A stretch of 64,000 nucleotides of DNA from a virus: IMG/VR virus record IMGVR_UViG_3300042348_000780; one strand, given 5' to 3'. A program made the translations under genes and the position numbers. Of this stretch, positions 40,217 to 56,926 are shown piece after piece. The number at the start of each line of letters is the position of its first letter. Within the stretch, counting starts at the first letter, position 1. The notes under the pieces are model-generated. The model worked only from the letters and a program-made list of their open reading frames with translations. It did no database searches and was not told where the DNA came from.

Positions 40217-40238
40217 TTTAATATTTTTGGAGTATTTA

Positions 40239-40646
40239 ATGGAAGAAAATAATGATGATATTTTTGATGGATTGGGTGTTGAAGTGACCCTAAAATCAAA
40301 AGAAGACTTTTTAAAAATCAAGGAAACCCTCACAAGAATTGGCGTATCCTCAAAAAAGGAAAATAAACTATTTCAATCTTGTCATATTCTGCACAAGCGA
40401 GGTCGTTATGCAATAATGCATTTTAAAGAAATGTTTATACTTGATAATCTAGAGAGTGATATTTCTGATGATGATATTGGTAGAAGAAATACTATTGTAA
40501 AATTATTGATTGAGTGGGGTTTATGTGATGCAGTTGATCCTGAAGAATATAGCACACCACAACTTTCTTTAGCAAGAATTAAAATAGTATCACATAAAGA
40601 CAAAGTTAACTGGCAACTCGTTCCTAAATACCATATAGGAAAGTGA
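40239..40646 (+). CDS. regA: Translational repressor RegA
   Basis: DFLKIKETLTRIGV.S; LFQSCHILHK.GRY.I.HFKE.F.LD; RRNTI..LL..WGL; W.LVPKY.IG. Confidence 0.96.
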   Translation: MEENNDDIFDGLGVEVTLKSKEDFLKIKETLTRIGVSSKKENKLFQSCHILHKRGRYAIMHFKEMFILDNLESDISDDDIGRRNTIVKLLIEWGLCDAVDPEEYSTPQLSLARIKIVSHKDKVNWQLVPKYHIGK

Positions 40647-40658
40647 GTTGTTTTTAAT

Positions 40659-41501
40659 ATGGATATAATGCAAGCAATTGGAGCACCGTTTAATACAGAT
40701 CAGTCTTCCTGTTCTGACAAGAAACCTAAATTATTTTCATGGACGAAAGAAGATAGCAATATCAAGGTTTTTATAGATGCAGCTATTTCACATGGAATAA
40801 ATTACGTAAAGAAGCCTAACGAAAAAAAGATAGCATGGATTTGTGAATCAAGGGCGATATTTTATGAATTTAATTTTCCTAAAGATTTATTTGAAAAACA
40901 TCTTGAACGGATTTGTGACAGCTATGATGCTGTTTATTTTTCTGATAGGACATTTTGCAGTAAAAATAAAAAATTACATTTCTCGTTTGCTGGAAGTAAC
41001 CTTCCTTGGATAGAAGATCAACAAATATTTGAAAAGAATAAATTAGTATCTCTAATAGCATCACCAAAACAAGCAACAATAGGTCATCAAGTTCGTCATG
41101 CTTTGGCAGACAAATGGAAAGATAAAGTTGATTTATATGGTGGTGTATTAGGATCACAAAGATTTGGATATGAGAAACGACCTTGGGGAGATAAAAGTCG
41201 TGCCTTGAATCCATATATGTTTTCAATTGTTATTGAAAATGATAAGTATCCAACTTACTTTACAGAAAAATTAACAGACTGTTTTGCAACTGGAACAATA
41301 CCTGTATATTGGGGTACACCTGATATTGGTAATTATTTCAATTCAGAAGGAATTATTACACTTGATTCATCATTTGATCCATCACAATTAACAGAAGAAT
41401 TATATTATAGTAAGATGGATGCAATTAAACATAATTTCGAACGTGTGAAAAAATTAGAGAATGCAGATGACATTCTTTATCACATGATAAAACAAATATA
41501 A
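40659..41501 (+). CDS. Glycosyltransferase, GT10 (fucosyltransferase-like) family
   Basis: YMFSIVIEN...YFTEKLTDCFATGTIPVYWG is the GT10-type donor-binding motif. Confidence 0.8.
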   Translation: MDIMQAIGAPFNTDQSSCSDKKPKLFSWTKEDSNIKVFIDAAISHGINYVKKPNEKKIAWICESRAIFYEFNFPKDLFEKHLERICDSYDAVYFSDRTFCSKNKKLHFSFAGSNLPWIEDQQIFEKNKLVSLIASPKQATIGHQVRHALADKWKDKVDLYGGVLGSQRFGYEKRPWGDKSRALNPYMFSIVIENDKYPTYFTEKLTDCFATGTIPVYWGTPDIGNYFNSEGIITLDSSFDPSQLTEELYYSKMDAIKHNFERVKKLENADDILYHMIKQI

Positions 41502-41504
41502 ATA
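41497..41504 (+). promoter_or_regulatory. Late promoter TATAAATA inside the glycosylation island
   Basis: Exact consensus overlapping the stop codon, 7 nt before the ATG at 41512. Confidence 0.6.
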
Positions 41505-41511
41505 CTAGACC

Positions 41512-42195
41512 ATGAAGACACCTGTGATTTCTTTTTATGCTGACGTAGATGGTCGCACTTATTATAGCGATCATGCCACAAGATTGAAAAAAAATCTTGA
41601 GGAACATTCCGTACCAAACTTTATTAGACATAAACCATCAAAGGGAAATTATCGTTCTAATTGTTTATCAAAACCTAGATTTATTCTTGAGATGATGAAC
41701 GAATTAAGAACACCACTTGTTTGGTTAGATGTAGATTCAATTGTACATAAACCTCTTGAAGTTTTTGATGAGTTTCACGATAAAGTTGATTTAGCTATGG
41801 CATTTCCTAAAGTTCCTACAAAGGAAGATACAACTATTGGTATGCCAAAAGCATCACCAATATACTTAAATCAAACACCAAAATCTTATGAATTTATATA
41901 TGCTTGGATTGAGGCAAGTGAAGAATTAGAACGACAAGCAAATATTGCATTTGATCATGAAGTTTTGTTAAAGATATTCATGAAAATGATAAACGAGAAT
42001 ACTGGTGTTCGTATGGCTTTTTTAGGAAATGCTTATTGTGTTTGGCCTGGTATACCGATTCAAGGTGGAGAACCAGTAATTACAATGGGATTAGCGGATG
42101 GAGAATCAAAAGAACAGGTATTGAGAGATATGGGTTTTGATGAACACAATATTAAATTTCAAAGCCCAGGAAATAAGTTTTTGGTGAATCAATGA
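41512..42195 (+). CDS. Nucleotide-diphospho-sugar transferase (GT-A fold, DXD motif)
   Basis: KPRFILEM...LVWLDVDS; FDHEVL. Confidence 0.7.
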   Translation: MKTPVISFYADVDGRTYYSDHATRLKKNLEEHSVPNFIRHKPSKGNYRSNCLSKPRFILEMMNELRTPLVWLDVDSIVHKPLEVFDEFHDKVDLAMAFPKVPTKEDTTIGMPKASPIYLNQTPKSYEFIYAWIEASEELERQANIAFDHEVLLKIFMKMINENTGVRMAFLGNAYCVWPGIPIQGGEPVITMGLADGESKEQVLRDMGFDEHNIKFQSPGNKFLVNQ

Positions 42196-43025
42196 AACCT
42201 GTAATATTGAATGCTGATTATATGATATCTTCTGAAGATATTCCAGATATCATGCATCCAACAGAAATATATTTTACAAGATTTGGTACTAATAAATTTC
42301 CAAATGGAGAACCATCGTTTATTGGTGAAAATTCATATAAAATATTTTGTCATGTAAATGAACCAACAACTTCTAGATGGGTTGAACCTGTAGAAAATAT
42401 TATAAAGCATCACAAAAAGTATGATAAAATTGTAACATCAAATCCAGAAGTTTTAGATAAATGTTCAAACGCAAAGTTCATGGTGTACGGAACAACATGG
42501 TTAAATAAGTCAAAACATCATCCAGATTCATTTGGAAAATTTACTAATGATCTAGTAACTCTTCAGAAAGAATTAAGTCTTTCTATGGTATGTGGATCTT
42601 TATATGGAAAACCTGGATATAATCTAAGACATATTATATTTCAAAATCAAGATAAAATTTTAGTATCTAAAAAATTTTATAGTTCAACACGTTTTATGAT
42701 ACCAAATGTTCCAACATTACCCAATGATGATAAAATACATCTATTTAATAGCATGTATTCAGTAGCAATTGAAAGCACACAAGAAGTAAATTATTTTTCT
42801 GAAAAAATAGTAGATTGTCTGATAACTAAAACAATCCCTATATATTGGGGATGTCCAAACATATCAGATTTTTTTGATACATCATATTGGTTAAATATTG
42901 ATGATCTTATAAATTTTAAATTTACTGATGATTATTACTATAGTAATTTAGAAAAAATAAATATTAATTTTGAAAAATCAAAACAATATTGTGATAACAT
43001 TATAGAAAGAATATTAAAATTATGA
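42192..43025 (+). CDS. Second GT10-like glycosyltransferase
   Basis: MYSVAIES...NYFSEKIVDCLITKTIPIYWG.PNI. Confidence 0.75.
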   Translation: MKPVILNADYMISSEDIPDIMHPTEIYFTRFGTNKFPNGEPSFIGENSYKIFCHVNEPTTSRWVEPVENIIKHHKKYDKIVTSNPEVLDKCSNAKFMVYGTTWLNKSKHHPDSFGKFTNDLVTLQKELSLSMVCGSLYGKPGYNLRHIIFQNQDKILVSKKFYSSTRFMIPNVPTLPNDDKIHLFNSMYSVAIESTQEVNYFSEKIVDCLITKTIPIYWGCPNISDFFDTSYWLNIDDLINFKFTDDYYYSNLEKININFEKSKQYCDNIIERILKL

Positions 43026-43720
43026 ATAAGCGAGTATTATTAGTAACTGGAATAGGGAAATTACAACTAGATGTTTATTCTGCTGGTGGTGATTTGCCTA
43101 TTAAACAAATAGCAGAAATGACATTTCCTTCTAAACAAAGATATGCTTCTAAACATGGTTATGATTTATTAAAAATTGAAGATTTTGGTTCTGATAAAGA
43201 AAAAAATATAGATGAAAGTAATATGGGATTTATGAGAGCGGCTAGAACATCCGATATGTTAAACTATTATGATATAGTAGTGTGGATTGATGCCGATTCC
43301 ATAATAACAAATGATCAAATTAAAATAGAAAATTTTCCAATAGAAGAAGACATAACATTCTATGCATCATATGATTGGAATGGAAAATATAGTATAAGTG
43401 GCGGTAATTTTATGTTTGTTAAAAATAAAAATACTGAACATTTTCTTGAAGTATTTTATAGTCTTGTTGGAAAAGCTAAACATGAACAAGAAGCTATGAA
43501 TTTTTTATATTTTAGAACACCTTATAAAAATATGATGAAAATTCTTGATCATGATTATTTAAATGCAGCTCCAACTAGAGAAATGTATGCTGAACAATGG
43601 GCCACTAGAGGAGATATACCTTATCCATGGAATGAAAAATCTTTTTTATGTCATTTAACTGGAGCCTCTAATAGACATAGAGAAAGAATATTAAAATCTT
43701 ACTTTAATAATTTTTTATAA
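43022..43720 (+). CDS. Glycosyltransferase, GT34/MNN10-like (GT-A fold)
   Basis: YASKHGYDL; VVWIDADSIITN; HEQEAM; FLCHLTG. Confidence 0.7.
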   Translation: MNKRVLLVTGIGKLQLDVYSAGGDLPIKQIAEMTFPSKQRYASKHGYDLLKIEDFGSDKEKNIDESNMGFMRAARTSDMLNYYDIVVWIDADSIITNDQIKIENFPIEEDITFYASYDWNGKYSISGGNFMFVKNKNTEHFLEVFYSLVGKAKHEQEAMNFLYFRTPYKNMMKILDHDYLNAAPTREMYAEQWATRGDIPYPWNEKSFLCHLTGASNRHRERILKSYFNNFL

Positions 43721-43815
43721 GAACATAAATATATGTTATCAATTATTACTTATATTTAAATAAAAATATTTTATATATTGACATCTGTTAATAAAATATG
43801 ATAGAGAATTTTAAA

Positions 43816-44769
43816 ATGAAAAAAATTGTATATGTTACAGGTTGTTTAGGCTTTATTGGTTCATATATAACTCGTTTATGTTTACAGCGAGGATGGTATG
43901 TAAAAGGTGTTGATAAAATAACATATGCTGCAAATAAAGATTTATTAAATGAATTTACAAAATATGAAAACTTTTCATTTGTACATTGTGATATAAATGA
44001 TCTTAAATTTTTATATGACTGTGATTATGTAATTAATACAGCAGCAGAAACACATGTTGGAAATTCTATAGCAAATAGTGATGATTTTATTAAATCAAAT
44101 ATAGACGGTGTACATAATTTATTAGAATTGATAAGAAATTATAGGCAAGAAACTGGAAAAATACCAACCTTGTTTCATTTTAGCACTGATGAAGTTTATG
44201 GAGATATTGAAGAAGGTGCTCACACAGAAACAGATTTACTTAAGCCATCCAATCCATATTCAGCGACTAAAGCAGCAGCAGATATGCTAATATTAGCCTG
44301 GGCTAGAACGTATGGAATCCCATATGTTATTGTTAGACCAACAAATAATTATGGAATAGGTCAATATGTTGAAAAATTAATTCCAAAATCATGTAAATAT
44401 CTTGCTTTGGGGAGAAAAATACCACTTCATAACAATGGAACACCTATAAGAAATTGGTTACATGCTGAAGATACAGCAAGAGCAGTTTTAAATATTATTG
44501 ATAAAGATGTTAAAAATGAAATATACAATATTTGTGGTGGATTTGAACAAAGTAATTTTGAAACAGTAAATCAAATTTTGAAATGTCATAATATTCCAGA
44601 AGAAAAATTACAAAATTATATTGATTTGTCTTTCAATCGAACTGGACAGGATGTAAGATATGCATTGAATGATTCTAAACTAAGATCATTAGGTTGGAAT
44701 CCAATTAAAATTTTTGAAAAAGAATTAAAAGATATAGTAAAACACTATCAGGAAAAATTTATATGGTAA
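43816..44769 (+). CDS. rfbB: NDP-glucose 4,6-dehydratase (RmlB/RfbB-like extended SDR)
   Basis: VTGCLGFIG; AAETHV; STDEVYG; PSNPYSATKA; NNYG..Q..EKLIP; R.GQD.RY. Alternative start at 43798. Confidence 0.88.
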   Translation: MKKIVYVTGCLGFIGSYITRLCLQRGWYVKGVDKITYAANKDLLNEFTKYENFSFVHCDINDLKFLYDCDYVINTAAETHVGNSIANSDDFIKSNIDGVHNLLELIRNYRQETGKIPTLFHFSTDEVYGDIEEGAHTETDLLKPSNPYSATKAAADMLILAWARTYGIPYVIVRPTNNYGIGQYVEKLIPKSCKYLALGRKIPLHNNGTPIRNWLHAEDTARAVLNIIDKDVKNEIYNICGGFEQSNFETVNQILKCHNIPEEKLQNYIDLSFNRTGQDVRYALNDSKLRSLGWNPIKIFEKELKDIVKHYQEKFIW

Positions 44770-45836
44770 ATAATATATTTGAAAATTTATTTGTTCTTGA
44801 GTTAGCAAATAATCATTGGGGATCATTAAAACGAGGAAAGCAAATTGTAAAACAATTTGCTAAAGTTGTAAAAACAAATAAAGTTAAAGCAGCAATTAAA
44901 TTACAGTTTAGAGATGTAGATACATTTATTCATAAAGATTTTAAAACTGAAGGAAAAGGTGAAGAGTTAACTAATTTACCTAAAAGAAGTAGATATATTC
45001 AAAAAACATGTAAAACAAAATTAACATATGACGAATTTGAAGAACTCATTAATTATATTCGTAAACATGATTGTATTCCAATGGCAACTCCATTTGATGA
45101 GCAATCTGTAGATTGGTGTGTTTCTATGAATTTACCTATCATAAAAATAGCAAGTGCTGATATTAATGATTGGATATTAATTAAAAAAATAGCATCAACA
45201 AAAAAACCTGTAATTATTTCAACGGGTGGAGCAAATGATAAACAGATAGATGATGTTGTTAAGTATTTTACAAATAGAAATATTTTAATATCAGTTAATC
45301 ATTGTGTTTCAAAATATCCAAGCGAAGATAATGAATTAGAATTACATCAGATTGATTATTTAAAACTAAAATATCCAAATATAGTTATAGGATTATCTAC
45401 TCACGAATATCATGATTGGTATTCTTCTGTGTTGATATCATATGGTAAGGGCGTTAGAACATGGGAGAGACACATAGATATTCCATATCCAAAAGATCAC
45501 CAACAAACTGAAATATCTAGTTATTGTTCAACACCAGAACAAATTGATACTTGGTTTAAATCATACAATAAAGCAGTTGAAATGTGTGGTTCTTCATCAT
45601 TAATTAGAAGAATTATTGATGACAAGGAAAAAAAATATTTAGAATCTTTATATCGCGGATTGTATCTAAAAAGAGATATAAATAAAGGAGAAAGTGTGAG
45701 TTTAGATGATTTATATTCTGCTATTCCATATCAGAAAGAAATAAATCAATTAACCTCAAGAGATTTTATTGAAAATGATGCGATTGCTTTGAGAAATTTA
45801 AAAAAGGATTCTCCTTTAATCGTGGATGATATTTAA
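44763..45836 (+). CDS. N-acetylneuraminate synthase family protein (NeuB/PseI/SpsE-like) with a C-terminal SAF/AFP-like tail
   Basis: ELANNH.G; TPFD..SVD; KIASAD; PVIISTG; HCVSKYP; GLSTH; ERH. Confidence 0.85.
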   Translation: MVNNIFENLFVLELANNHWGSLKRGKQIVKQFAKVVKTNKVKAAIKLQFRDVDTFIHKDFKTEGKGEELTNLPKRSRYIQKTCKTKLTYDEFEELINYIRKHDCIPMATPFDEQSVDWCVSMNLPIIKIASADINDWILIKKIASTKKPVIISTGGANDKQIDDVVKYFTNRNILISVNHCVSKYPSEDNELELHQIDYLKLKYPNIVIGLSTHEYHDWYSSVLISYGKGVRTWERHIDIPYPKDHQQTEISSYCSTPEQIDTWFKSYNKAVEMCGSSSLIRRIIDDKEKKYLESLYRGLYLKRDINKGESVSLDDLYSAIPYQKEINQLTSRDFIENDAIALRNLKKDSPLIVDDI

Positions 45837-45837
45837 T

Positions 45838-47574
45838 ATGAAAATTTCTGATTTAGTTTTTAAATTTATAAAAGATAAAGGAATAGACACAGTTTTTACT
45901 GTGTCTGGTGGTGGATGTATGCATTTAATTGATTCTTTGGGGAAAAATAAAGAATTAAAATATATCTGCAATCATCATGAACAAGCTTGTTCTATGGCAG
46001 CAGAAGCATATGCAAGAATAAAAAATATACCTGGTTGTGTTTTGGTCACTACTGGTCCTGGTGGAACAAATGCTCTTACAGGAGTTTTATGTGCTTTTCA
46101 GGATTCTATTCCTATGATTGTAATTTCTGGACAAGTTCCATCTGATCAATTGTCAAATGGAACTGGTTGTAGGCAAATAGGACAGCAAGAATATAATATT
46201 GTTGATACAGTAAGACCTATGACGAAATATGCTGTTACTATAACAGATAAAAACAGTATATTGTACCATTTAGAAAAGGCATATCATTTAGCAGTTTCTG
46301 GGCGTCCTGGGCCTGTGTGGTTAGATATACCACTTGACATACAGAGCAGCGAAGTTAATATTTCTAAATTAAAAAAATTTATTTTACCAAAGCAAAAAAA
46401 TAATAAAATAATCAATTCGTTATATTTAAATAAACTTCAAAAATTACTGTTAAAAAGTAAAAGACCAGTTGTTGTTGTTGGTAATGGTGTTCGTGTGTCA
46501 AATAATGTTGATAATTTACTAGAATTTTTAAATAAAACAGGTATTCCAGTCTTAACTGGACCCCATTCAGCGGTTGATGTTGTAAATTCTGATTATGAAT
46601 ATTATGCTGGTAGGTTTGGAATTTTAGGACAACGCACATCAAATCAAATTATACAGGAGTCAGATTTAGTAATATCTCTTGGATCTAGATTAAATCCAAA
46701 AATGATTGGATATGATCAATCAAAATTTGCTCCTGGGGCAACTAAATTTATAATCGATGTTGATAAAAACGAAATTAAAAAATTAAAATTTAAAAATAAA
46801 ATAGGTTGGTGTATTGATCTTCGTTTGTTTTTTAACATGATTAAAAATGTTAAAGTAAATGATATAAGTGAATGGCAAAATAATATTAAAAAATATAGAA
46901 ATAATGAAATATTAGTTTTAGAAAAACATAAGTTTTTAAAAGATTATGTTAGTAGCTATGTTTTTTCTAATAAATTAGAAAAATATTTATCAGAAGATTC
47001 AATTATAGTAACTAGTGATGGAACAGCTCATGTAGTACCTTTAAAAACTATAACCTTAAAAGGCAAACAAAGACTTTTTAGTAATGAAGGAACTGCTCCA
47101 ATGGGTTATGGATTGCCAGCAGCAATTGGAGCACATTATGGAAGTAAAAAAGAGATAATATGCATAGAAGGAGATGGAAGTATTATGATGAATCTACAAG
47201 AATTAGAAACAGTTTGTCATAATAAAGTACCAATAAAAATATTTATTCTAAATAATTGTGGTTACTTATCAATCAAATTAACTCAAAATTCATTTTTTAA
47301 AGGAAATTTAGTTGCTTCTGAAATTTCTTCTGGTGTTTCAATTCCTTCATTTGAAAAAATAGCTAATGCATTTGGTTTGAAGTATATTTCTATTAAAACA
47401 AATGATATGTTAGATCCTAAATTAAATGAAGTATTTTCAAATAAAGAAAGTATTTTAATTGAAATATTCAGTGATCCTAATGAACAACACGAACCAAAAG
47501 TTATTTCTAAAGGAATTGATAAAAATGGAAAAATTATTCCAGGCGAATTGACAGATATGAATGTGAAAACTTAA
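45838..47574 (+). CDS. Thiamine-diphosphate-dependent enzyme (acetolactate synthase family; YerE-like sugar C-branching enzyme by context)
   Basis: HHEQA catalytic Glu; TTGPG.TN; GRPGPVW.DIP.D; MGYGLPAAIGA; ThDP motif GDGS...NN. Confidence 0.85.
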   Translation: MKISDLVFKFIKDKGIDTVFTVSGGGCMHLIDSLGKNKELKYICNHHEQACSMAAEAYARIKNIPGCVLVTTGPGGTNALTGVLCAFQDSIPMIVISGQVPSDQLSNGTGCRQIGQQEYNIVDTVRPMTKYAVTITDKNSILYHLEKAYHLAVSGRPGPVWLDIPLDIQSSEVNISKLKKFILPKQKNNKIINSLYLNKLQKLLLKSKRPVVVVGNGVRVSNNVDNLLEFLNKTGIPVLTGPHSAVDVVNSDYEYYAGRFGILGQRTSNQIIQESDLVISLGSRLNPKMIGYDQSKFAPGATKFIIDVDKNEIKKLKFKNKIGWCIDLRLFFNMIKNVKVNDISEWQNNIKKYRNNEILVLEKHKFLKDYVSSYVFSNKLEKYLSEDSIIVTSDGTAHVVPLKTITLKGKQRLFSNEGTAPMGYGLPAAIGAHYGSKKEIICIEGDGSIMMNLQELETVCHNKVPIKIFILNNCGYLSIKLTQNSFFKGNLVASEISSGVSIPSFEKIANAFGLKYISIKTNDMLDPKLNEVFSNKESILIEIFSDPNEQHEPKVISKGIDKNGKIIPGELTDMNVKT

Positions 47575-47575
47575 T

Positions 47576-48334
47576 ATGAAACTTTTTAAAAATACAAATT
47601 ATAATCGTTCACTGTATGACAATACTAAATCATTAACAGAAATTGCAAATTTGTTTGAAACAGATAAAGGTAATGCTGATTCAAAATCTTTATCATGGAG
47701 TAAAGATTATCCAGAGCACTTTTCTATGTCATATACTATAACCTATGAAAAGTATATGAATAATTATAGAGAAGATCATGTTAAATTATTTGAAATAGGA
47801 ATTTGTGATAAAAGATTTCCATACGCTTCACAAAAAATGTGGTTAACATTTTTTAAAAATGTAGAATTATATGGGATGGATAATTTTTGGGGTAATTATT
47901 TAGAAGATAAAACTAAAGATATAAATTTTTTAAATGAATTGGGTGTAAATTTTATATATGCTGATCAAGGAAATTTTTGCGATTGGAATGAAATAAAAGA
48001 ACAATGCCCAAATAATTTTGATTTTTTTATTGAAGATGGTAGTCATTGGCCAAATCATATGGCAGTAAGTTTGTGGCAAGCAAAAGATTTAGTAAAACAA
48101 AATGGATATTATTTTATGGAAGATATTCAAAATCCAAAAACTAGTCGTGGGATGTTTAAATATGATAACGCATTATTGTGTGAAGATTTAATCAATACAC
48201 AAAAAACTGGAATTTTTAAAAGCCATTTTTTAAATAATCAACAGAATTTAGATATTAATAAATCTTTTGAATTAGTTGAATTAGTGTTGGATCCAAAATC
48301 AATAAATTATTTAGCAATATTTAGAAAGATATAA
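47576..48334 (+). CDS. Class I SAM-dependent O-methyltransferase (sugar O-MT, MycE/TylE-like)
   Basis: TDKG; LFEIG; ADQG; IEDGSH; YFMEDI. Confidence 0.7.
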   Translation: MKLFKNTNYNRSLYDNTKSLTEIANLFETDKGNADSKSLSWSKDYPEHFSMSYTITYEKYMNNYREDHVKLFEIGICDKRFPYASQKMWLTFFKNVELYGMDNFWGNYLEDKTKDINFLNELGVNFIYADQGNFCDWNEIKEQCPNNFDFFIEDGSHWPNHMAVSLWQAKDLVKQNGYYFMEDIQNPKTSRGMFKYDNALLCEDLINTQKTGIFKSHFLNNQQNLDINKSFELVELVLDPKSINYLAIFRKI

Positions 48335-48335
48335 A

Positions 48336-49013
48336 ATGATAAAAATTAAAACATTAGATGAATTAGCAAATTTTTATAAAACCGATAAAGGTACTATGTT
48401 TGAAACTCCATGTAAACATGGTTATGCACCAATATATGATGAATTATTAACGCCATTAAGAGATAAAGATATTTCTTTATTGGAAGTTGGTGTTTGGTTA
48501 GAAACTTCATCCATTGGTGGTGAATCTTTAAATATGTGGAAAGAATATTTTAAAAATGCAAATATATATGCATTTGATATTAGAGATATGAAAAATCATC
48601 CATTTTTTGTAAATAACACTAATGTGTATTTTTACAATGGAGATCAGGGCAACCGAGACGATTTTGTATCTATGCATAATGCATTTAATAATGTATTTTT
48701 TGATTTTATTCTTGAGGATGGATCACATAATGCAAATCATCAAATGATTTCATTTGCTAGTTTATTTAAATATGTTAAACCTGGGGGCATTTATATCTTA
48801 GAAGATATAACATTACCTGGTGTTGCCAACTGTAATGGAATGAATAATAATCCAACATGGTATACTTTGAATGGTTTTATTGAAAATAAACAAATAATAT
48901 CTAATTATTTAACAGATGAAGAAACCTCCTATCTTACTGATAACATAGACAAAATAATAATACATAACGATATTAAGAATCAATGGGCTACGGCTATAAT
49001 TTATAAAAAATGA
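48336..49013 (+). CDS. Class I SAM-dependent O-methyltransferase (paralog)
   Basis: TDKG...HGY..IY; LLEVGV; GDQG; LEDGSH; KPGGIYILEDI. Confidence 0.78.
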   Translation: MIKIKTLDELANFYKTDKGTMFETPCKHGYAPIYDELLTPLRDKDISLLEVGVWLETSSIGGESLNMWKEYFKNANIYAFDIRDMKNHPFFVNNTNVYFYNGDQGNRDDFVSMHNAFNNVFFDFILEDGSHNANHQMISFASLFKYVKPGGIYILEDITLPGVANCNGMNNNPTWYTLNGFIENKQIISNYLTDEETSYLTDNIDKIIIHNDIKNQWATAIIYKK

Positions 49014-49780
49014 ATATTTTAATAACAGGCGGTAATGGATACATCGCAAAAAAATTAAAGCAAAATTTAAATTATAATATACTCGCAGTCACTCGTCACG
49101 ATTTTGACCTTGAAGATACTACAGCTGTTCATAAGTGGTTTCGTGATAAAACATTTGATGTAGTAATACATACAGCAATATCTGGTGGGAGCAGATTAAA
49201 ATCTGATGATTCTAGCATTATAGAATCAAATTTAAAAATGTATTACAATTTATATAATGAAAGACATCAGTTTGGTAAACTTATATCTTTTGGTTCAGGT
49301 GCAGAAATATTTGCATCAAATACACCATATGGTGAAAGTAAAAAAAGAATTGCAGAATCAATTCAAAATACTAATAATTTTTACAATATTCGCATATTTA
49401 ATGTATTTGATGAGAATGAATTAGAAACTCGATTTGTAAAAGCAAATATCATAAGACATATTCGCAATCAACCAATGATAATATTTAACGATAAAATCAT
49501 GGATTTTTACTACATGAAAGATTTATTATCTTTAGTGGAATATTATCTAGTAAATAGTGATTTGCCAAAAGAATCAAATTGTAGTTACGAGATTAAGTTT
49601 ACATTAAAGCAAATAGCAAATTTTATAAATTCACTAGACAATCACAAAGTTCCTGTTATAATTCAAAGCCAAAAACATTTAGAATTTTATTGTGATTCTG
49701 CACATGATCTAAATATAAATGAAATAGGACTAAAACAGGGTATAATTAATACTTATAATATTCTAAAAAATAGAGGTTAA
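49010..49780 (+). CDS. NAD(P)-dependent epimerase/reductase (extended SDR; YerF-like by context)
   Basis: ILITGGNGYI; DVVIHTA; FGSGAE; YGESK (YxxxK). Confidence 0.8.
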   Translation: MNILITGGNGYIAKKLKQNLNYNILAVTRHDFDLEDTTAVHKWFRDKTFDVVIHTAISGGSRLKSDDSSIIESNLKMYYNLYNERHQFGKLISFGSGAEIFASNTPYGESKKRIAESIQNTNNFYNIRIFNVFDENELETRFVKANIIRHIRNQPMIIFNDKIMDFYYMKDLLSLVEYYLVNSDLPKESNCSYEIKFTLKQIANFINSLDNHKVPVIIQSQKHLEFYCDSAHDLNINEIGLKQGIINTYNILKNRG

Positions 49781-49781
49781 T

Positions 49782-51128
49782 ATGATTGATGTGAATTTAT
49801 CTGGTGATGAAATTGATCGTAAAATAAAAGAACTTGTTCAATTAAAAAGAAAACAAACAAAAAAATGGATTCGAGGAAAAGATACAATTCAATATGCTGG
49901 CAATTACTTTGATGATGAAGAATTTATTGCTGGTATAGATTGTTTTCTTGATGGTTGGTTGGTTCTTGGAGATCATGGTCTTCGTTTCGAAAGACAATTC
50001 AAAGAAAAACTTGGAAAACAACACGGTGCATTAGTAAATAGTGGATCAAGTGCTAATCTTTTAATGATTACTGCATTAAAATCTAAAAGACTTTATAATT
50101 TTGGTCCAGGGACAAAGATAATTACTCCTGCCGCTGGTTTTCCAACAACAATTAATCCAATTATCCAAAATGGTTTTCAACCAGTTTTTGTTGATATTGA
50201 AGTAGATACTTTAAATCTAAATTTAGATCAAGTTGAACAAGCAGCAAAAAATGGTGCTAAAGTTCTTGCATTTGCACATGTACTTGGTAATCCACCTAAT
50301 ATGGATAAGTTAATGGAGATTGTTGATAAGTATAATCTTATTCTTCTTGAAGATTGTTGTGATGCTCTTGGTAGTAAATATGATGGTAAATTACTAGGAT
50401 CTTTCGGTCAATTTGCATCATGTTCGTTTTATCCTGCACATCATATTACAATGGGAGAAGGAGGATTTGTTGCATCTAAAACTGATGAACAAGATACAGT
50501 AATTAAAAGTCTTCGTGAATGGGGAAGAGGTTGTTATTGTTCTGGTAAGGGTGCTTCTTGTCTTCGAAATGGAATGTGTAAGAAGAGATTCAGTGAATGG
50601 TTGCCAAGTTTTCCTGGAGTAATATTTGATCACAAATATGTCTATGAAGAGATTGGTTATAATCTAAAACCAATTGAAATGCAAGCGGCAATAGGATTAG
50701 TTCAACTTAAGAAGTTAGATAAGATTATTGAACTTCGAAAGAAAAATTTTAATCGTCTATACCAAATTTTTTCAAAATATGATAAGATTTTTCATCTACC
50801 AAAAGCAACTGAAAAATCAGATCCTTCTTGGTTTGCTTTCCCATTAACAGTTAAAGATGGAGTATATCTTAAACGAAATGAATTTACTATGTATCTTGAA
50901 GACAATAAGATACAGACTAGAAATTATTTTGGTGGAAATGTTCTTCTTCAACCAGCATATGAAGGAATTTATTCTGGTAATGCAAAGAAAGATTTTCCAG
51001 TCGCAACAAAAGTTACTACTGACACATTTTTTTTAGGGACTAGTCCAGTCATAACAGACGAACAACTAGATTATATTGAAGATGTAGTTACAACTTATTT
51101 TAATAATTCTACAAATTATAGCGTATAA
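49782..51128 (+). CDS. rfbH: CDP-4-keto-6-deoxyglucose 3-dehydratase-like enzyme (RfbH/DdhC, PMP- and [2Fe-2S]-dependent)
   Basis: VNSGSSANL; EDCCDA; SFYPAHHITMGEGG (His replaces the DegT-family Lys); WGR.CYC..C; DHKY.Y.EIGYNLK. Confidence 0.88.
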   Translation: MIDVNLSGDEIDRKIKELVQLKRKQTKKWIRGKDTIQYAGNYFDDEEFIAGIDCFLDGWLVLGDHGLRFERQFKEKLGKQHGALVNSGSSANLLMITALKSKRLYNFGPGTKIITPAAGFPTTINPIIQNGFQPVFVDIEVDTLNLNLDQVEQAAKNGAKVLAFAHVLGNPPNMDKLMEIVDKYNLILLEDCCDALGSKYDGKLLGSFGQFASCSFYPAHHITMGEGGFVASKTDEQDTVIKSLREWGRGCYCSGKGASCLRNGMCKKRFSEWLPSFPGVIFDHKYVYEEIGYNLKPIEMQAAIGLVQLKKLDKIIELRKKNFNRLYQIFSKYDKIFHLPKATEKSDPSWFAFPLTVKDGVYLKRNEFTMYLEDNKIQTRNYFGGNVLLQPAYEGIYSGNAKKDFPVATKVTTDTFFLGTSPVITDEQLDYIEDVVTTYFNNSTNYSV

Positions 51129-51131
51129 ATA
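51124..51131 (+). promoter_or_regulatory. Late promoter TATAAATA upstream of the GT2-TPR gene
   Basis: Exact consensus overlapping the rfbH stop, then an AAGGA RBS. Confidence 0.65.
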
Positions 51132-51149
51132 AGATAAAGGATCTTAATT

Positions 51150-52358
51150 ATGCATCGACTTTCTTTGTCAATGATTGTAAAAAATGAATCACATGTGATT
51201 CTAGAGTGTCTTAATTCAGTATATAAACTTATAGATTATTGGGTAATAGTTGATACAGGATCAACAGATGGAACCCAAGATATTATCAAAAACTTCTTTC
51301 AAGAGAAAGGCATTCCTGGAGAATTACATGAAAAGGAATGGAAAGGTTTTGGTAAATCAAGAACAGAAGCATTAGATCTTTGTAAGGGTAAAGCAGAATA
51401 TGCTTATATGATCGATGCAGATGATTATCTACATGGTGAATTCAAATTACCACCAGGAAATAAAGTTGATTCATATGCTCTTCGTCTAGGAAGAGAAGAA
51501 TTTTCTTGGTGGAGAAATCAAATATTCAAAGTAGATGCTGAATGGGAATACGTTGGTGTTCTTCATGAATACGCTCGTTCTAGAGCAAAAGAACAACCAA
51601 TCATAGCAAAGCTTGAAGGTAATTATAGGGTAGTCGCTCGCACTGTTGGTGCAAGAAATGTTGGCATTACACCTGTTGAAAAATATACAAAAGATGCCGA
51701 GACATTAGAGAAGGCTCTTATAGATGAACCAGATAATATTCGATATATGTTTTATCTGGGTCAATCATATTTTGATTCACAACAGTGGGAAAAAGCAATT
51801 GATGCTTATATGAGAAGAGCCGAAAAGGGTGGATGGGGTGAAGAAGTATATTATTCTTTATATCGAATTGCAGTAGCCAAGGCCATGTTAAATCGTCCAT
51901 GGGGTGAAATCATGGAATCATTTTTGCTTGCCTACAATTCAAGACCAATTCGAGCAGAGCCACTATATCATATTGCTCAAATCTATCGTACAAAGTTTAA
52001 CATGCCTGCAATCGCCTATATGTTCGCAAAGGCAGCATCAGATATTCCATTTCCAGAAGGAGATATCTTATTCGTACCTGATATGATGTACAATTATGCA
52101 ATATTAGATGAATTGGCTGCTACAGCACATGCAGCAGGACAATTTCAATTAGGATATGATGTTTGCCGTAGACTATTACTTGAAAATAAGATTCCAAAAT
52201 CAGAGATTCCACGAATTCAAGGTAATTTGGAACAATATGCACATATATTGGAACAGATGAAGAAACAACAGGCTGCTTTTCAACAACAGATGAAACAAAT
52301 GGAGCCTGATCCAGAACCAGAAAAAAAGAAACAAATAAAATACAAAGAACGTAAATAA
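51150..52358 (+). CDS. GT2 glycosyltransferase with TPR repeats (protein O-glycosyltransferase architecture)
   Basis: LSMIVKNE...CL.S; VDTGSTDGT; IDADD; W.YVGVLHE; TPR segments RYMFYLGQSYFD, EEVYYSLYRIA, P.RAEPLY. Confidence 0.85.
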   Translation: MHRLSLSMIVKNESHVILECLNSVYKLIDYWVIVDTGSTDGTQDIIKNFFQEKGIPGELHEKEWKGFGKSRTEALDLCKGKAEYAYMIDADDYLHGEFKLPPGNKVDSYALRLGREEFSWWRNQIFKVDAEWEYVGVLHEYARSRAKEQPIIAKLEGNYRVVARTVGARNVGITPVEKYTKDAETLEKALIDEPDNIRYMFYLGQSYFDSQQWEKAIDAYMRRAEKGGWGEEVYYSLYRIAVAKAMLNRPWGEIMESFLLAYNSRPIRAEPLYHIAQIYRTKFNMPAIAYMFAKAASDIPFPEGDILFVPDMMYNYAILDELAATAHAAGQFQLGYDVCRRLLLENKIPKSEIPRIQGNLEQYAHILEQMKKQQAAFQQQMKQMEPDPEPEKKKQIKYKERK

Positions 52359-53089: not shown

Positions 53090-56000
53090 ATGTCAAAAAA
53101 TCCTGGAAGTATTTCAGAGCAAAAAAGTCCACAGACTTATATTCCATCTGCAAATCCATATAATTTAAGTAATGTTGGAGCACCAACACAATATAATAGT
53201 GCTACTGTACCAGTGACTTATAATGGTTTTAAATGGAGTTTTAGTTCTCCTGTGACATGGGGTAGATTTGTTTCTGGAGAACCATATATTATTCTTCCTG
53301 CCGCTGGTGTTATGGTAACTGGTGTATCTTATGAAAATACACCTGGTGTTTATGAAAATTGTCCAATTCTAAAAACTGGTTACACCAGTGAGGCTGGTCA
53401 ATTAAATAATGTTGGTATTACCATGTGGGTAAATGGTTCCATGAAGAATCCAGTTCCGTGGTATCATATTGAATTATTAAATTGGTCATTAGCAACAATT
53501 GGTACTACCATCCAAAAATGGTCATATGATGAAAGATATAGCAATAATATTAATTTAATTAAGGGATGGACAGTAATAAAGGATATAGATGAATCAAAAT
53601 TCCCAATGAGTGAATTTTTACGATTCCCAGTTGGTTTGTCTGCTGGTGATGTTCTTGTTACCACAAAATCAAATTTCAATGCAAATTGGCAACAAAGCAA
53701 TAGGCCACAGGGGGTGGCTAGATTTGTTGCTTTTACTGATCCATGGATGAGTCGTTTAGGTATAGAAAAATATGGAATTTTAACATCCATACCACAAGGT
53801 AAAGGTCCAACCTATGCTGATTGTTATAGACCACCTGTAATGTGGAATGGATCTTCATTCTCTGATAGACCAATATTCTATCGTAGAGATATGGTGAAGA
53901 ATACAGAAGATTACTTGTTGAGTATCCCTGAGAAAAATGTTTATGGCGAAGATATAAATTTGAATAGCACAAGTATTCAACAAGAATTCAATAATTGGAA
54001 TGACAAGATCACCAATTATTGGAAATCTTCAGTTATGCCATATCATTCCCATCACCATCGTCAAGGTGCTGTTGGTGCTTATGATGTTTACAACTCAACA
54101 CCAAATGAAACAAAATATGGTTATCACGGCTATAGCTGTAAAATTATCGATCAGACTGCACAATCAATATTTGTTCCTTGGGTATCAAGGACAAATAGAC
54201 AAAAAGCCTTAGATAAATTTACACAATATGGTATAGATAGCTGGGGGATGATTAATGCTGGTGGTGCTGCTGCTGGTAACGGTGGTCATAATCAAGGTAT
54301 ATTTGTTCCATCATTAGCATTTTTAGGTTGGGTGTATGATAGAAATGATATCAAACAATGGCACAATAATAAACAATTATTAGATAAGTTAAAATCAACA
54401 CAAATTCACCAAACAACTGGTGCTTCTATACCTGGTATTTCTGGTGGAAGATGGGCTATAGGACAAATACAAGTTCCTTCCGACTTTTATGTAAAATCTC
54501 TTGTTTCCCAAGATTACAACCAAAGAGTCAAACTTTTTGGTTCAGCCGTTACAAATAAGCAAGGATTTACTCATGCTACACTAACTAATTCAGATATTGA
54601 TCTATATCATGGTTTAACATATCCAAGTGTAGCATCAGGAGCAACTGGTGAGGGGTGGGGATATAAGCTGACAGGTATAACCTGTGCATTTGCATATAGT
54701 GTTCCATCATTAGAACTAACTGGTCAAATTGTTTCAGGTAATTTCGGTGTTATTGTTGCTCATAGAGACTTTGTTGGTAGACTTAATGGACTTGGACCAA
54801 AATCAAATAAATCTGGTCCAGCAGAATTACCATTGAAGTTGAATTCAAATGGCTACTTGATGAAGAAAGGTTTTCATTCAGAAGATGATGTTACTGATTA
54901 CTGGGGCTTTACATCACAAACATTAGTTGGTTCAAAGATAAAAATAACTTCTGGTCCTGGTGCTGGAAATACAGCATATGAAATTCTAGATGTAAAAAAT
55001 ACTTTCGTAGATAGAGGAAGTCTTCAGGCTGGTGATGAAGAAACAGAACAAACAGTAACAAACACAAACCTACAAAAATTACAATATGCTTCATTTATAT
55101 TGGATCGTGATTTCGATGATAATGTTGTTCCTACAAGTGAATCAACATTTAAGATTTATCCAGCTGAAAATAATTACTCAGGGTGGGGATTCTATGCAAA
55201 TCCATGGTTACAAGGATACACATACAATATGAATCTTACAACCATATACAATCAACATAACTACAATGATATTGCAGATGAAAATATCATGAAGTTTGCA
55301 GCAATGTATAATTGGTTAGGTATCACTCACGAACAATATATGGTTGATTATATCAAGGATCTATATTGGAATACAGCCATTCCATCATATATAAGACGTA
55401 GAAAAATTTTAGGTGGACCATATCTAGGTTCATTATATGATTCTTCAAATATAGTTGGTGGCAACGTAATTGTTCAAATGTTAGGAATTACTGGCGCAAC
55501 ATTCTTACCAAGATCAATAAATTTGAATGATTTGGCTGGAATCAACGACACAGTGCCTGCTTTAGATTTAAATGGAATTACACTTGAATTTATTCCTGAA
55601 CCAATTACAAATTATACAGTAGTAAATGGAAGTGGAATAAGTTATTCTGGCTACGGTAAGATATTCAATACTCCACAGACACCGTTTAAGATTGATGCAA
55701 TTATCGATGATAAGATTTTCATTAATCCATCATTCTCATCATTGTACACTTTAATTAGCAGATTCAAGGCAAAGAATGGTCCTTTCTTGAGTGATGATTT
55801 GATCACCGAAACACAAGAAACAGACAATCAATATAAAGACAGATATGCAATTTATAACTTTTTAAGTAAGAGAGATTTTACTAATGTCAACAATGTAGTA
55901 AGTAGTGCTGAATATTTAAGAAATATTCCATCACTGCAAACTTTAAATCAGACAAATACTAAATTAAATCTTACCTTTATTAGTAATCAATATGGAGTTG

Positions 56001-56926
56001 CTGGTGCAGCTGGCATATTACCAAATAATGGTGAAACTAATCTATTAACTACCTCCTATGGTATGAGAGCGATTACTAGAAATGGCAATTTGCTCATAAT
56101 AGTGATGGATACAGAGACAGTGCGTGGAACTATAGATTTAAATGATATTTGGTACTGTGTTGCAAATCCAACAATTGCTGTTGGAGCCACTGCAATGGCA
56201 GATGAATATATCATTTCAAATTGGAAGAAGGCAGAGAATGTATTTGGTTATTTTGCTGGCACTAATATTGGCTTCTACACAAATGATCTTCCTGCATCTG
56301 GATCATTGATACCAAACTATAATCCAAGTGCAACCGATGATAAATTAATATTCTTCAAATATTTAACAAAATTAAATATTGCAGATACTCAAAATATGAT
56401 TTCTGTTGTACCAGCTCCAACTGGTATTACACAATCACAATGGAGTAATATTAATTCAATAAATTATGCTGGTTGGACATTCTCAGATGCCTATAAGATT
56501 CATAAGATAGATTCAATAATAACAAACAATACCCCAGGAAATGCTGGTTATTTTAGATACAACTTCATTAATTCAACAGCAAATGATTATAGAAGATATG
56601 CATATAATACATTTAGATTGTGGTATAATAACTTTATTGACATGGAAACCATCCGTGGTATTCCAACATTCAGTATAAGACAAGAAGTTGATACTAATGT
56701 CTTTGAACAGATGGATATGTCGGTCGAGAAGTTAACATTGAATGAAACCATATTGAGTAATGAATTCTATAATCCAAAGGGTAGAAATATTTTAAATTCT
56801 GGTGTTATAGGTAGTGATTATGAACATAATGGATTCTATAACACATATATTCATGGACTTACATTCAATTTATTACTTCCACAGACTCCACATACATTGT
56901 TATGGTGTTCAGGGGCTACAATTTAA
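53090..56926 (+). CDS. Large (1278 aa) hypothetical, probably virion-associated, protein
   Basis: Long ORF with an AAGGA RBS in a late unit; rich in aromatic residues, Gly and Asn; many G-X-T motifs. Confidence 0.7.
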   Translation: MSKNPGSISEQKSPQTYIPSANPYNLSNVGAPTQYNSATVPVTYNGFKWSFSSPVTWGRFVSGEPYIILPAAGVMVTGVSYENTPGVYENCPILKTGYTSEAGQLNNVGITMWVNGSMKNPVPWYHIELLNWSLATIGTTIQKWSYDERYSNNINLIKGWTVIKDIDESKFPMSEFLRFPVGLSAGDVLVTTKSNFNANWQQSNRPQGVARFVAFTDPWMSRLGIEKYGILTSIPQGKGPTYADCYRPPVMWNGSSFSDRPIFYRRDMVKNTEDYLLSIPEKNVYGEDINLNSTSIQQEFNNWNDKITNYWKSSVMPYHSHHHRQGAVGAYDVYNSTPNETKYGYHGYSCKIIDQTAQSIFVPWVSRTNRQKALDKFTQYGIDSWGMINAGGAAAGNGGHNQGIFVPSLAFLGWVYDRNDIKQWHNNKQLLDKLKSTQIHQTTGASIPGISGGRWAIGQIQVPSDFYVKSLVSQDYNQRVKLFGSAVTNKQGFTHATLTNSDIDLYHGLTYPSVASGATGEGWGYKLTGITCAFAYSVPSLELTGQIVSGNFGVIVAHRDFVGRLNGLGPKSNKSGPAELPLKLNSNGYLMKKGFHSEDDVTDYWGFTSQTLVGSKIKITSGPGAGNTAYEILDVKNTFVDRGSLQAGDEETEQTVTNTNLQKLQYASFILDRDFDDNVVPTSESTFKIYPAENNYSGWGFYANPWLQGYTYNMNLTTIYNQHNYNDIADENIMKFAAMYNWLGITHEQYMVDYIKDLYWNTAIPSYIRRRKILGGPYLGSLYDSSNIVGGNVIVQMLGITGATFLPRSINLNDLAGINDTVPALDLNGITLEFIPEPITNYTVVNGSGISYSGYGKIFNTPQTPFKIDAIIDDKIFINPSFSSLYTLISRFKAKNGPFLSDDLITETQETDNQYKDRYAIYNFLSKRDFTNVNNVVSSAEYLRNIPSLQTLNQTNTKLNLTFISNQYGVAGAAGILPNNGETNLLTTSYGMRAITRNGNLLIIVMDTETVRGTIDLNDIWYCVANPTIAVGATAMADEYIISNWKKAENVFGYFAGTNIGFYTNDLPASGSLIPNYNPSATDDKLIFFKYLTKLNIADTQNMISVVPAPTGITQSQWSNINSINYAGWTFSDAYKIHKIDSIITNNTPGNAGYFRYNFINSTANDYRRYAYNTFRLWYNNFIDMETIRGIPTFSIRQEVDTNVFEQMDMSVEKLTLNETILSNEFYNPKGRNILNSGVIGSDYEHNGFYNTYIHGLTFNLLLPQTPHTLLWCSGATI

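Follow-up and report, generated by a model that had tools for sequence, protein, structure and literature searches.

The DNA analysed here, a stretch of 64,000 nucleotides (hereafter the window) from the viral record IMGVR_UViG_3300042348_000780 of IMG/VR, carries a complete-looking gene set for a rare branched, deoxygenated sugar. According to the reading that we consider on balance probable, though far from secure, the phage would make a nucleoside diphosphate (NDP)-3,6-dideoxy-4-C-acyl-branched hexose with a branch of more than two carbons, probably O-methylated, the donor of the branch being supplied by way of a NeuB-like enzyme. The predicted product would be closer to erwiniose or caryophyllose than to yersiniose. 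The biosynthetic core (43798-51128) consists of seven plus-strand genes, each overlapping or abutting the next, which encode in this order an RmlB-type dehydratase, a NeuB-like protein, a thiamine diphosphate (ThDP) enzyme, two methyltransferases, an RmlD-like short-chain dehydrogenase/reductase (SDR) and an E1/RfbH 3-dehydrase. An initial annotation of this DNA had noted that a dehydratase, an RfbH/DdhC protein, a ThDP enzyme and an SDR are co-located, and all four were found intact and in the same direction. It had taken them for a yersiniose-like route. The parts of a YerE-type route to a branched 3,6-dideoxy sugar are indeed present, but the two-carbon branch derived from pyruvate did not stand, as the ThDP enzyme falls outside the PpYerE clade and within a clade linked to donor genes, and a NeuB-like phosphoenolpyruvate (PEP)-dependent synthase is encoded directly upstream. 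The gene for this synthase (44763-45836), lying between the dehydratase and ThDP genes, was absent from that inventory, and suggests both a branch longer than that of yersiniose and a biosynthetic route of which the literature surveyed gives no description.

The proposed pathway would start from NDP-glucose made by the host, presumably dTDP- or UDP-glucose, which the RmlB-type enzyme, of recognizable class, would convert to NDP-4-keto-6-deoxyglucose. The E1-type 3-dehydrase, a class equally recognizable, would then remove the 3-hydroxyl to give NDP-4-keto-3,6-dideoxyhexose, with electrons probably provided by host reductases of the ferredoxin or flavodoxin type. In parallel, as family chemistry and gene linkage suggest, the NeuB-like enzyme would join PEP and a small aldehyde into a 4-hydroxy-2-oxo acid. 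The ThDP enzyme, a member of the YerE family, would decarboxylate this putative donor and place the acyl anion on the C4 ketone. The RmlD-like SDR may reduce the side-chain ketone, the two methyltransferases may O-methylate the sugar, and five phage glycosyltransferases would finally transfer it to an acceptor.

Dehydratase, E1, SDR and methyltransferases

The first gene of the core (43798-44769) encodes an RmlB-type NDP-glucose 4,6-dehydratase with GxxGxxG, STDE and YSATK motifs, matching PDB entry 2HUN at 7e-67. Among the NCBIfam models, it scored 305 bits with the dTDP-type TIGR01181 (cut-off 365), against 69 for the CDP type and 52 for the GDP type, in agreement with the earlier view of a dTDP-type (RmlB) rather than CDP-type enzyme. 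The start at 43816 used in that annotation is the second ATG of this open reading frame (ORF).

The product of the last core gene (49782-51128) can be assigned from its sequence as a true E1/RfbH/DdhC enzyme, the pyridoxamine 5'-phosphate- and [2Fe-2S]-type NDP-4-keto-6-deoxyhexose 3-dehydrase. It clears the equivalog NF011936 of NCBIfam (483 bits, cut-off 423) and aligns with the Yersinia E1 structure 3BCX over residues 7-440 (2e-109). In its SFYPAHH motif, His220 and His221 align to the "ahh" of wild-type E1, a position that reads "akh" in the H220K mutant 3BB8. Cysteines are present at 192, 193, 251, 253, 260 and 266, of which Cys193, Cys251 and Cys253 are numbered as in the Yersinia enzyme, and either Cys260 or Cys266, after a 5-residue insertion, is the fourth candidate; the [2Fe-2S] ligands of Yersinia E1 are C193, C251, C253 and C261. 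The His-for-Lys replacement and the Cys ligands pointed out in the initial annotation thus match the Yersinia enzyme at His220 and Cys193/251/253.

The SDR (49010-49780), our proposed side-chain ketoreductase, is a short extended RmlD-like protein with GxxGxxG and YGESK (Pfam Epimerase 5.6e-16, RmlD_sub_bind 3.7e-11). A reduction as in the YerF route had been expected of it, but it bears no YerF-type homology: when the 310-residue SDR that follows the ThDP gene of a JanthE-ortholog locus (see below) was used as query, no match was found in the window at E <1e-6. That 310-residue protein has orthologs of 47-51% identity after PpYerE-type genes.

The two genes at 47576-49013, previously unidentified, encode paralogous class I S-adenosylmethionine (SAM)-dependent methyltransferases. 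The first (47576-48334) is Methyltransf_24-like according to ESM Atlas comparisons (features 0.95, structure TM 0.71-0.75 to Methyltransf_24 clusters); the second (48336-49013) shares 30% identity with it (E 6e-20) and has a weak Methyltransf_24 match of its own (0.0024). With two such genes, the O-methylation considered earlier as a possibility is plausible.

The ThDP enzyme

The ThDP enzyme (45826-47574), which we assign to a JanthE-like subfamily of the YerE family, carries the TPP_N, TPP_M and TPP_C domains (PF02776, PF00205, PF02775), and the HHEQ and IEGDGS motifs are visible in its alignment with JanthE, so that both the catalytic Glu and the GDG motif of such enzymes are present. All NCBIfam models of acetohydroxyacid synthase (AHAS) stayed under cut-off, TIGR00118 giving 360 bits against 538. 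Its two best PDB matches, both above every AHAS entry, are 8RPH (2e-106) and 5AHK (5e-72), the latter of which we take to be the structure of PpYerE. A PpYerE structure is mentioned in PMC12247030. The other entry, 8RPH, is that of JanthE, which is YerE-like, accepts ketones and has no known physiological substrates (PMC12188165). Identities of the phage enzyme are 27-30% to true AHAS, likewise 27-30% to PpYerE orthologs, and 34-44% to enzymes of bacterial sugar clusters that also contain a NeuB-like gene.

Phylogeny against AHAS had been set as the test that could refute a sugar-branching role. The trees included the phage and bacterial homologues, true AHAS from five of the same bacterial genomes, IlvB, IlvI and Gcl of Escherichia coli, and Pseudomonas enzymes retrieved from 401 genomes scanned with the phage E1; the main tree was built with IQ-TREE (LG+C20+F+G4, SH-aLRT), and FastTree was also run. 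The Pseudomonas enzymes are of two types, one matching 5AHK at 882 bits, by its sequence the ortholog of PpYerE, and the other matching JanthE best. In the IQ-TREE phylogeny, AHAS of the IlvB and IlvI types lies outside a clade of sugar-cluster enzymes supported at 96%. Within this clade, six PpYerE-type sequences are sister to a clade with 100% support. In the latter are all the ThDP enzymes from phages, all those from NeuB-linked bacterial loci, and two Pseudomonas sequences on long branches that have no NeuB-like gene nearby; nested inside it, the phage enzymes make up a 100% group of their own. FastTree agrees, and places the JanthE ortholog in the same wider clade as the phage enzymes. 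The enzyme is thus outside the anabolic AHAS, and these phylogenies suggest that it belongs to the YerE-like sugar-branching radiation, outside the pyruvate-type PpYerE clade. Carboligation onto an NDP-4-ketosugar is its predicted activity. The ThDP protein of a Janthinobacterium lividum metagenome-assembled genome (MAG; locus L069) was considered as a JanthE ortholog and rejected, with 335 bits.

The NeuB-like gene and its linkage to the ThDP gene

The protein encoded at 44763-45836, the proposed supplier of the 2-oxo acid donor, is a NeuB-family PEP-dependent synthase (Pfam NeuB, PF03102, 1.2e-38). Its best PDB match is 3G8R (9e-53), with true NeuB and PseI at about 1e-17, and it scores well below the equivalogs TIGR03586 (PseI; 135 against a cut-off of 340) and TIGR03569 (NeuB; 114 against 400). 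The blocks ELANNH, IKLQ, IKIAS, NHC, STHE and ERH, which presumably correspond to the catalytic residues of NeuB, are invariant in 15 phage homologues. Synthesis of sialic or pseudaminic acid was rejected on account of the low equivalog scores and the lack of partner enzymes and of a CMP-synthetase. All 12 genes of the glycosylation island are accounted for and none encodes a CMP-ulosonate synthetase or cytidylyltransferase; therefore the NeuB product is unlikely to be a glycosyl donor itself.

In a comparison set of 30 related viral loci from IMG/VR, the E1 family occurs in 27, the ThDP enzyme in 25, RmlB in 24, the NeuB-like protein in 23 and the SDR in 22. Wherever the NeuB-like gene was found with a ThDP gene (23 of the 30 loci), it directly abuts it. 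A 3-dehydratase of the E1 family, E1-type or ColD-like, is kept in all 27 loci where the family was found, which fits a required 4-keto-3,6-dideoxy acceptor. Seven of these loci (L008-L010, L017-L019 and L022) have the ColD-like form, of about 380 residues and about 33% identity, with the His present and no cysteine cluster; to judge from this sequence, such a form would need no reductase. One sub-lineage of the phage contigs (L014-L021; e.g. L014:11745-12389, L018:12368-13393) has, after the ThDP gene, genes for a classical adh_short SDR and for a 3-dehydroquinate-synthase-like protein, a pair that may extend the pathway by generating an aldehyde or by cyclisation.

The association extends to bacteria. 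When prokaryotic genomes, one for each species, were searched with the aligned NeuB-like proteins of the phages, the subfamily was found at 587 sites at least, and the best 80 of these show 52-57% identity and span several phyla, carriers including Zoogloea, Herbaspirillum, Pseudoduganella, Rhodoferax, Pseudomonas putida and Janthinobacterium lividum. Among these 80 loci, 73 have a ThDP homolog at most 10 kb from the NeuB-like gene, and five of the seven exceptions are contigs shorter than 10 kb. In 53 loci an E1 is also encoded nearby, complete in its Cys/His signature. The recurring bacterial set comprises the NeuB-like and ThDP genes, SDRs, E1, an RfbF-type nucleotidyltransferase, an FkbM methyltransferase, a family 2 glycosyltransferase (GT2), a phosphatase of the haloacid dehalogenase (HAD) family and a Methyltransf_23 protein. 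In Pseudomonas putida, for instance, the order is nucleotidyltransferase, CDP-type dehydratase, E1, glycosyltransferase, NeuB-like, ThDP, FkbM methyltransferase, SDR and methyltransferase. The HAD phosphatase occurs in 29 NeuB-linked bacterial loci (within L035-L110; e.g. L110:11096-11740), in six of them directly beside the NeuB-like gene, and in none of the phage loci. Its presence in a third of the bacterial cassettes hints that the aldehyde is phosphorylated there.

Seven Pseudomonas loci (L143, L145, L147-L149, L154 and L155) contain a second and more distant NeuB-family gene, of 26-30% identity, which pairs with its own well-supported ThDP sub-clade, and some of them have an additional nucleotidyltransferase-like gene. 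The NeuB-type partner and the carboligase seem to diversify together. A 5.6-kb contig labelled "Bacteroidetes MAG" (L032, RGCF01000194.1) encodes NeuB-like and ThDP proteins of 75% and 52% identity, nested in the phage clade, and probably derives from a phage but was binned with a bacterial genome.

Supply of the branch donor

Acyl-branched sugars such as erwiniose, caryophyllose and "gastriose" are made from a 4-keto-3,6-dideoxy sugar by a YerE-like enzyme and a reductase, and in that scheme a neighbouring aldolase makes the 4-hydroxy-2-oxo acid that serves the YerE-like enzyme as donor; ErwE rejects pyruvate (Steitz et al. 2022, PMC9306805). We found a close ortholog of JanthE in locus L181 (L181:3581-14140): the 22 residues about the unusual CDG motif are identical in the two proteins, as are 68 of 77 positions over four other segments. 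This locus encodes, in order, a nucleotidyltransferase, a CDP-type dehydratase, E1, the ThDP enzyme, an SDR, a DmpF-like acetaldehyde dehydrogenase and a DmpG-like 4-hydroxy-2-oxovalerate aldolase. By analogy, its layout is of the erwiniose type and suggests that the physiological donor of JanthE is 4-hydroxy-2-oxovalerate and its acceptor CDP-4-keto-3,6-dideoxyhexose.

The two kinds of donor module did not occur together. The DmpF/DmpG pair was found neither in the window nor in any viral locus or NeuB-linked bacterial locus examined, and no NeuB-like gene was found in the JanthE-ortholog locus or in the Pseudomonas loci with a 5AHK-like ThDP enzyme. The window has no class II or DmpG-type aldolase; a NeuB-family synthase adjoins the ThDP gene instead. 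Enzymes of the NeuB family condense PEP with an aldehyde into a 3-deoxy-2-ulosonic acid bearing a 4-hydroxyl. Since this chemistry gives the class of donor that these carboligases use, the NeuB-like enzyme can be read, by linkage and analogy, as a non-orthologous replacement of the aldolase module.

Nucleotidyltransferase and E3

No nucleotidyltransferase was found in the window or in the flanks of the 30 related viral loci with tblastn and custom hidden Markov models (HMMs), for which positive controls were included. Likewise, PF00483 matched all 14 control genomes but none of five related viral contigs, which are 52-107 kb long. A ferredoxin-reductase of the E3/DdhD type was sought in the window and the 30 viral loci with tblastn, a 2Fe-2S motif scan and a custom E3 HMM, again with no match. 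The absence of a nucleotidyltransferase and of DdhD from the window, as the initial annotation had it, is therefore confirmed. Because the dehydratase is RmlB-type and both of these genes are lacking, the phage appears to draw on dTDP- or UDP-glucose and on reductases of its host.

The missing E3 is not peculiar to the phage version. E3-like ORFs (2Fe-2S motif plus RxYS, about 330 residues) adjoin the nucleotidyltransferase in eight Pseudomonas loci (among L140-L159), seven of which have a PpYerE-type ThDP gene. Within the NeuB-linked bacterial loci (L033-L111), an E3-like ORF is present in one alone, though the Fe-S cysteines of E1 are kept, and four of five NeuB-linked genomes checked have an E3-like paralog elsewhere. 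SpnQ, an E1 homologue of the forosamine pathway of spinosyn, works on a dTDP-sugar without a dedicated E3, using general cellular reductases. That system is alike in having an E1-type 3-dehydrase lean on general reductases in a dTDP-sugar setting. It differs in that it serves the making of an antibiotic in an actinomycete and that the substrate of SpnQ is a 2,6-dideoxy sugar.

Alternative explanations

The NeuB-like gene might serve an unrelated purpose, with the ThDP enzyme adding a two-carbon branch from pyruvate, followed by reduction by the SDR, as in yersiniose. The set of dehydratase, E1, ThDP enzyme and SDR fits that scheme (PMC9306805), the best PDB match, JanthE, takes pyruvate among other donors (PMC12188165), and PpYerE is the second-best match. 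However, the phage enzyme lies outside the PpYerE clade, and the Pseudomonas loci with 5AHK-like ThDP enzymes have an E3, a YerF-type SDR and no NeuB-like gene, whereas the window has no YerF-type SDR. Moreover, the near-obligate adjacency of NeuB-like and ThDP genes in phages and bacteria would be left unexplained, and a separate ulosonic acid would have no activating enzyme. We thus consider this explanation unlikely. The cassette could also lead to two products, the dehydratase, E1 and SDR making a plain 3,6-dideoxyhexose nucleotide, and the NeuB-like and ThDP enzymes another small molecule or a 2-deoxy-aldose, with decarboxylation but no joining of the acyl group to the sugar. SDRs of the RmlD type are normally C4 ketoreductases of NDP-sugars and the ThDP superfamily includes simple 2-oxo-acid decarboxylases. 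Nevertheless, the five functions co-occur in 22-27 of the 30 viral loci and in most bacterial loci, the ThDP enzyme groups with ketone-accepting carboligases and not with decarboxylases, and adjacency of E1 and ThDP genes is also seen in the JanthE-ortholog and PpYerE-type clusters, which makes two products more doubtful still. As for an auxiliary metabolic AHAS that would boost branched-chain amino acids during infection, relatives of the ThDP gene are automatically annotated as "acetolactate synthase large subunit" and AHAS models are its top NCBIfam matches, but each of these lies far under cut-off, identity to true AHAS is lower than to the sugar-cluster enzymes (27-30% against 34-44%), the trees place the enzyme outside the AHAS group, the island lacks a gene for a regulatory small subunit and the ThDP gene is embedded among sugar genes. 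With scores, identities, trees and context all contrary, we rejected this reading as scarcely credible.

Several points also weigh against the acyl-branched sugar with a NeuB-supplied donor that we prefer. Gene linkage is no proof that the NeuB product is the donor of the ThDP enzyme, and the aldehyde substrate is only postulated. We know of no member of the 3G8R-like NeuB subfamily with a known function, 3G8R itself being an uncharacterised structural-genomics entry. YpYerE, ErwE, MMAR_2332 and MyGE are not in the ThDP tree, in which the orthologs of PpYerE and JanthE were identified indirectly. In the absence of E3, the C3 deoxygenation relies on putative host reductases. The RmlD-like SDR could instead reduce C4 of an unbranched sugar. 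By sequence, E1 is closest to a CDP-specific enzyme and the dehydratase is dTDP-type, so that their nucleotides may mismatch. As to novelty, Krug et al. reportedly surveyed over 200 YerE-like clusters in silico in 2024 and may already describe NeuB-type partners. Finally, JanthE accepts pyruvate in vitro, among other donors (PMC12188165).

Comparison with known systems

The yersiniose A pathway of Yersinia pseudotuberculosis (DdhA-D, YerE, YerF) and the PpYerE clusters of Pseudomonas share with the phage the RfbH/DdhC equivalog, with the same His220 and Cys193/251/253, and, as predicted here, a chemistry in which a ThDP enzyme branches a 3,6-dideoxy-4-ketohexose at C4 and the product is then reduced. 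In contrast to them, the phage has its ThDP enzyme in a sister clade, a dTDP-type dehydratase and no DdhA, DdhD/E3 or YerF-type SDR; it has in addition the NeuB-like gene and two methyltransferases, and its predicted branch is longer than C2. The clusters of the erwiniose/caryophyllose type (ErwE, MMAR_2332, MyGE; PMC9306805), together with L181, are alike in that a 4,6-dehydratase and E1 supply the 4-keto-3,6-dideoxy sugar, in a ThDP enzyme of the YerE family other than PpYerE, in an SDR reductase and, as predicted for the phage, in a dedicated gene adjacent to the ThDP gene whose product would make a 4-hydroxy-2-oxo acid. The phage differs from them in its NeuB-family synthase, where they have a class II pyruvate aldolase or the DmpG and DmpF enzymes, in its RmlB-type rather than CDP-type dehydratase, in lacking a nucleotidyltransferase, in its RmlD-like reductase and in viral carriage. 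Methyltransferases are shared with the acyl-branched cluster of Rhodopseudomonas palustris.

The bacterial cassettes with NeuB-like and ThDP genes (Zoogloea, Pseudomonas putida NBRC 14671, Herbaspirillum, Rhodoferax, Janthinobacterium lividum and others) share with the phage the NeuB-like protein (52-57% identity), the ThDP clade (34-44%), an E1 with its Fe-S cysteines, methyltransferases and, usually, the lack of a linked E3. To our knowledge, no function has been described for them in the literature surveyed. They differ in having an RfbF-type nucleotidyltransferase, a CDP-type dehydratase, methyltransferases of the FkbM and Methyltransf_23 families, as opposed to the Methyltransf_24-type of the phage, and in about a third of them the HAD phosphatase. 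Among the viral loci, a CDP-type dehydratase was matched weakly in L025 only (28% identity). In sixteen sister contigs a small protein with FkbM-like motifs, without a Pfam match, takes the place of the Methyltransf_24-type methyltransferases.

Glycan target and significance

At 179, 17743, 28445, 40209, 41497, 51124, 57304 and 60442, the T4 late-promoter consensus TATAAATA lies 10-30 nucleotides upstream of a start codon. In number it does not exceed chance over the window (18 against 14.5 expected); only its position shortly before starts is suggestive. Late expression and glycosylation of the virion would fit the GT2 enzyme with tetratricopeptide repeats (TPR) encoded after the core, the fibre- and virion-type genes that follow, and the position of TATAAATA upstream of starts. 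Glycosylation of the host envelope or of DNA may be alternative targets. Virion glycosylation in phages was reportedly described by Freeman et al. in 2023, and hypermodification of DNA with glycans is said to have been treated by Pyle et al. in 2024; PMC12801897 and PMC12619734 cite these works.

In a GenBank collection of 50,697 phage records, which may lack records close to the genome of the window, no homologue of the ThDP enzyme exceeded 30% identity and none of the NeuB-like protein exceeded 29%. The cassette is common in uncultured viral contigs, with the 30 IMG/VR loci and more than 100 protein clusters at 54-77% identity. The type of pathway and the textbook E1 are already known and the ThDP family is under active study; what is new is that a virus carries the cassette, that its plumbing is based on RmlB and that the ThDP enzyme has a partner of the NeuB type. 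Sugars of the branched 3,6-dideoxy kind occur as rare surface antigens, and biocatalysts for chiral tertiary alcohols are sought among the ThDP enzymes that make them. Should the proposal be true, phages make such sugars, and a bacterial glycan pathway has been rewired by a phage onto whatever NDP-glucose and reductases the host offers. It would also give a testable hypothesis for an uncharacterised NeuB subfamily with at least 587 sites, almost always beside a ThDP enzyme, as well as a panel of diverse YerE-family enzymes with predicted functionalised donors. More tentatively, and as a conjecture that we think may well fail, the NeuB-like protein could be a PEP-using and hitherto unrecognised feeder of long, hydroxylated 2-oxo-acid donors to YerE-family carboligases. 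The module would then define a large undescribed family of branched sugars in hundreds of bacterial species, and would have been captured by a lineage of uncultured T4-like phages, re-plumbed to host dTDP- or UDP-glucose and expressed late, so as to place an O-methylated branched sugar on the fibres or capsid of the phage itself.

Genomic context of the island

The window is part of the genome of a T4-like myovirus. The phage origin assumed at the outset is borne out by a T4-like portal, a gp23-type major capsid protein, the large terminase, sheath, a baseplate wedge protein and fibres, and by the clamp loader, gp62, RegA, a UvsW-like helicase and a gp46-like nuclease. The major capsid protein has less than 60% identity to that of any deposited phage, its nearest relatives being marine Synechococcus myoviruses and the Methylophilales phage Melnitz.

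The glycosylation island (40659-52358) comprises 12 plus-strand genes and is bounded on one side by regA (40227-40646) and on the other by a block of fibre genes and genes of unknown function. Its G+C content is 26-27% at the core, with flanks at 30-44%. Five glycosyltransferase-like genes, all on the plus strand, surround the core. Upstream, the products of 40659-41501 (Pfam Glyco_transf_10, 7e-9) and 42192-43025 (a weak match, 0.0079) are GT10-like and cluster together as paralogs; the gene between them (41512-42195) encodes a nucleotide-diphospho-sugar transferase of the GT-A fold, Nucleotid_trans-like, without a Pfam match and assigned from ESM Atlas comparisons (features 0.98, structure TM 0.74-0.78 to Nucleotid_trans/GT34-like clusters). 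They are followed by a GT34/DUF273-like glycosyltransferase (43022-43720; PF05637 4.5e-8, PF03314 3.5e-7). Downstream is the SunS-like GT2 and TPR protein (51150-52358; Glycos_transf_2 3e-14, TPR_16), whose match to the SunS model TIGR04195 (5.7e-10) is far under cut-off.

Directly downstream of the island, flanked by small ORFs, 53090-56926 encodes a protein of 1278 residues with no PHROG match and a Pfam match below threshold. In the close relatives L002-L007, the gene content and order of the island differ from those of the window at 40659-52358. L004 has an extra GT11 and two more SDRs, with regA and the gene for the downstream 1278-residue protein both kept, and in L002, L003 and L007 the E1 gene is placed upstream of the GT34-like gene. 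In these comparisons, it behaves like a hypervariable glycan locus.

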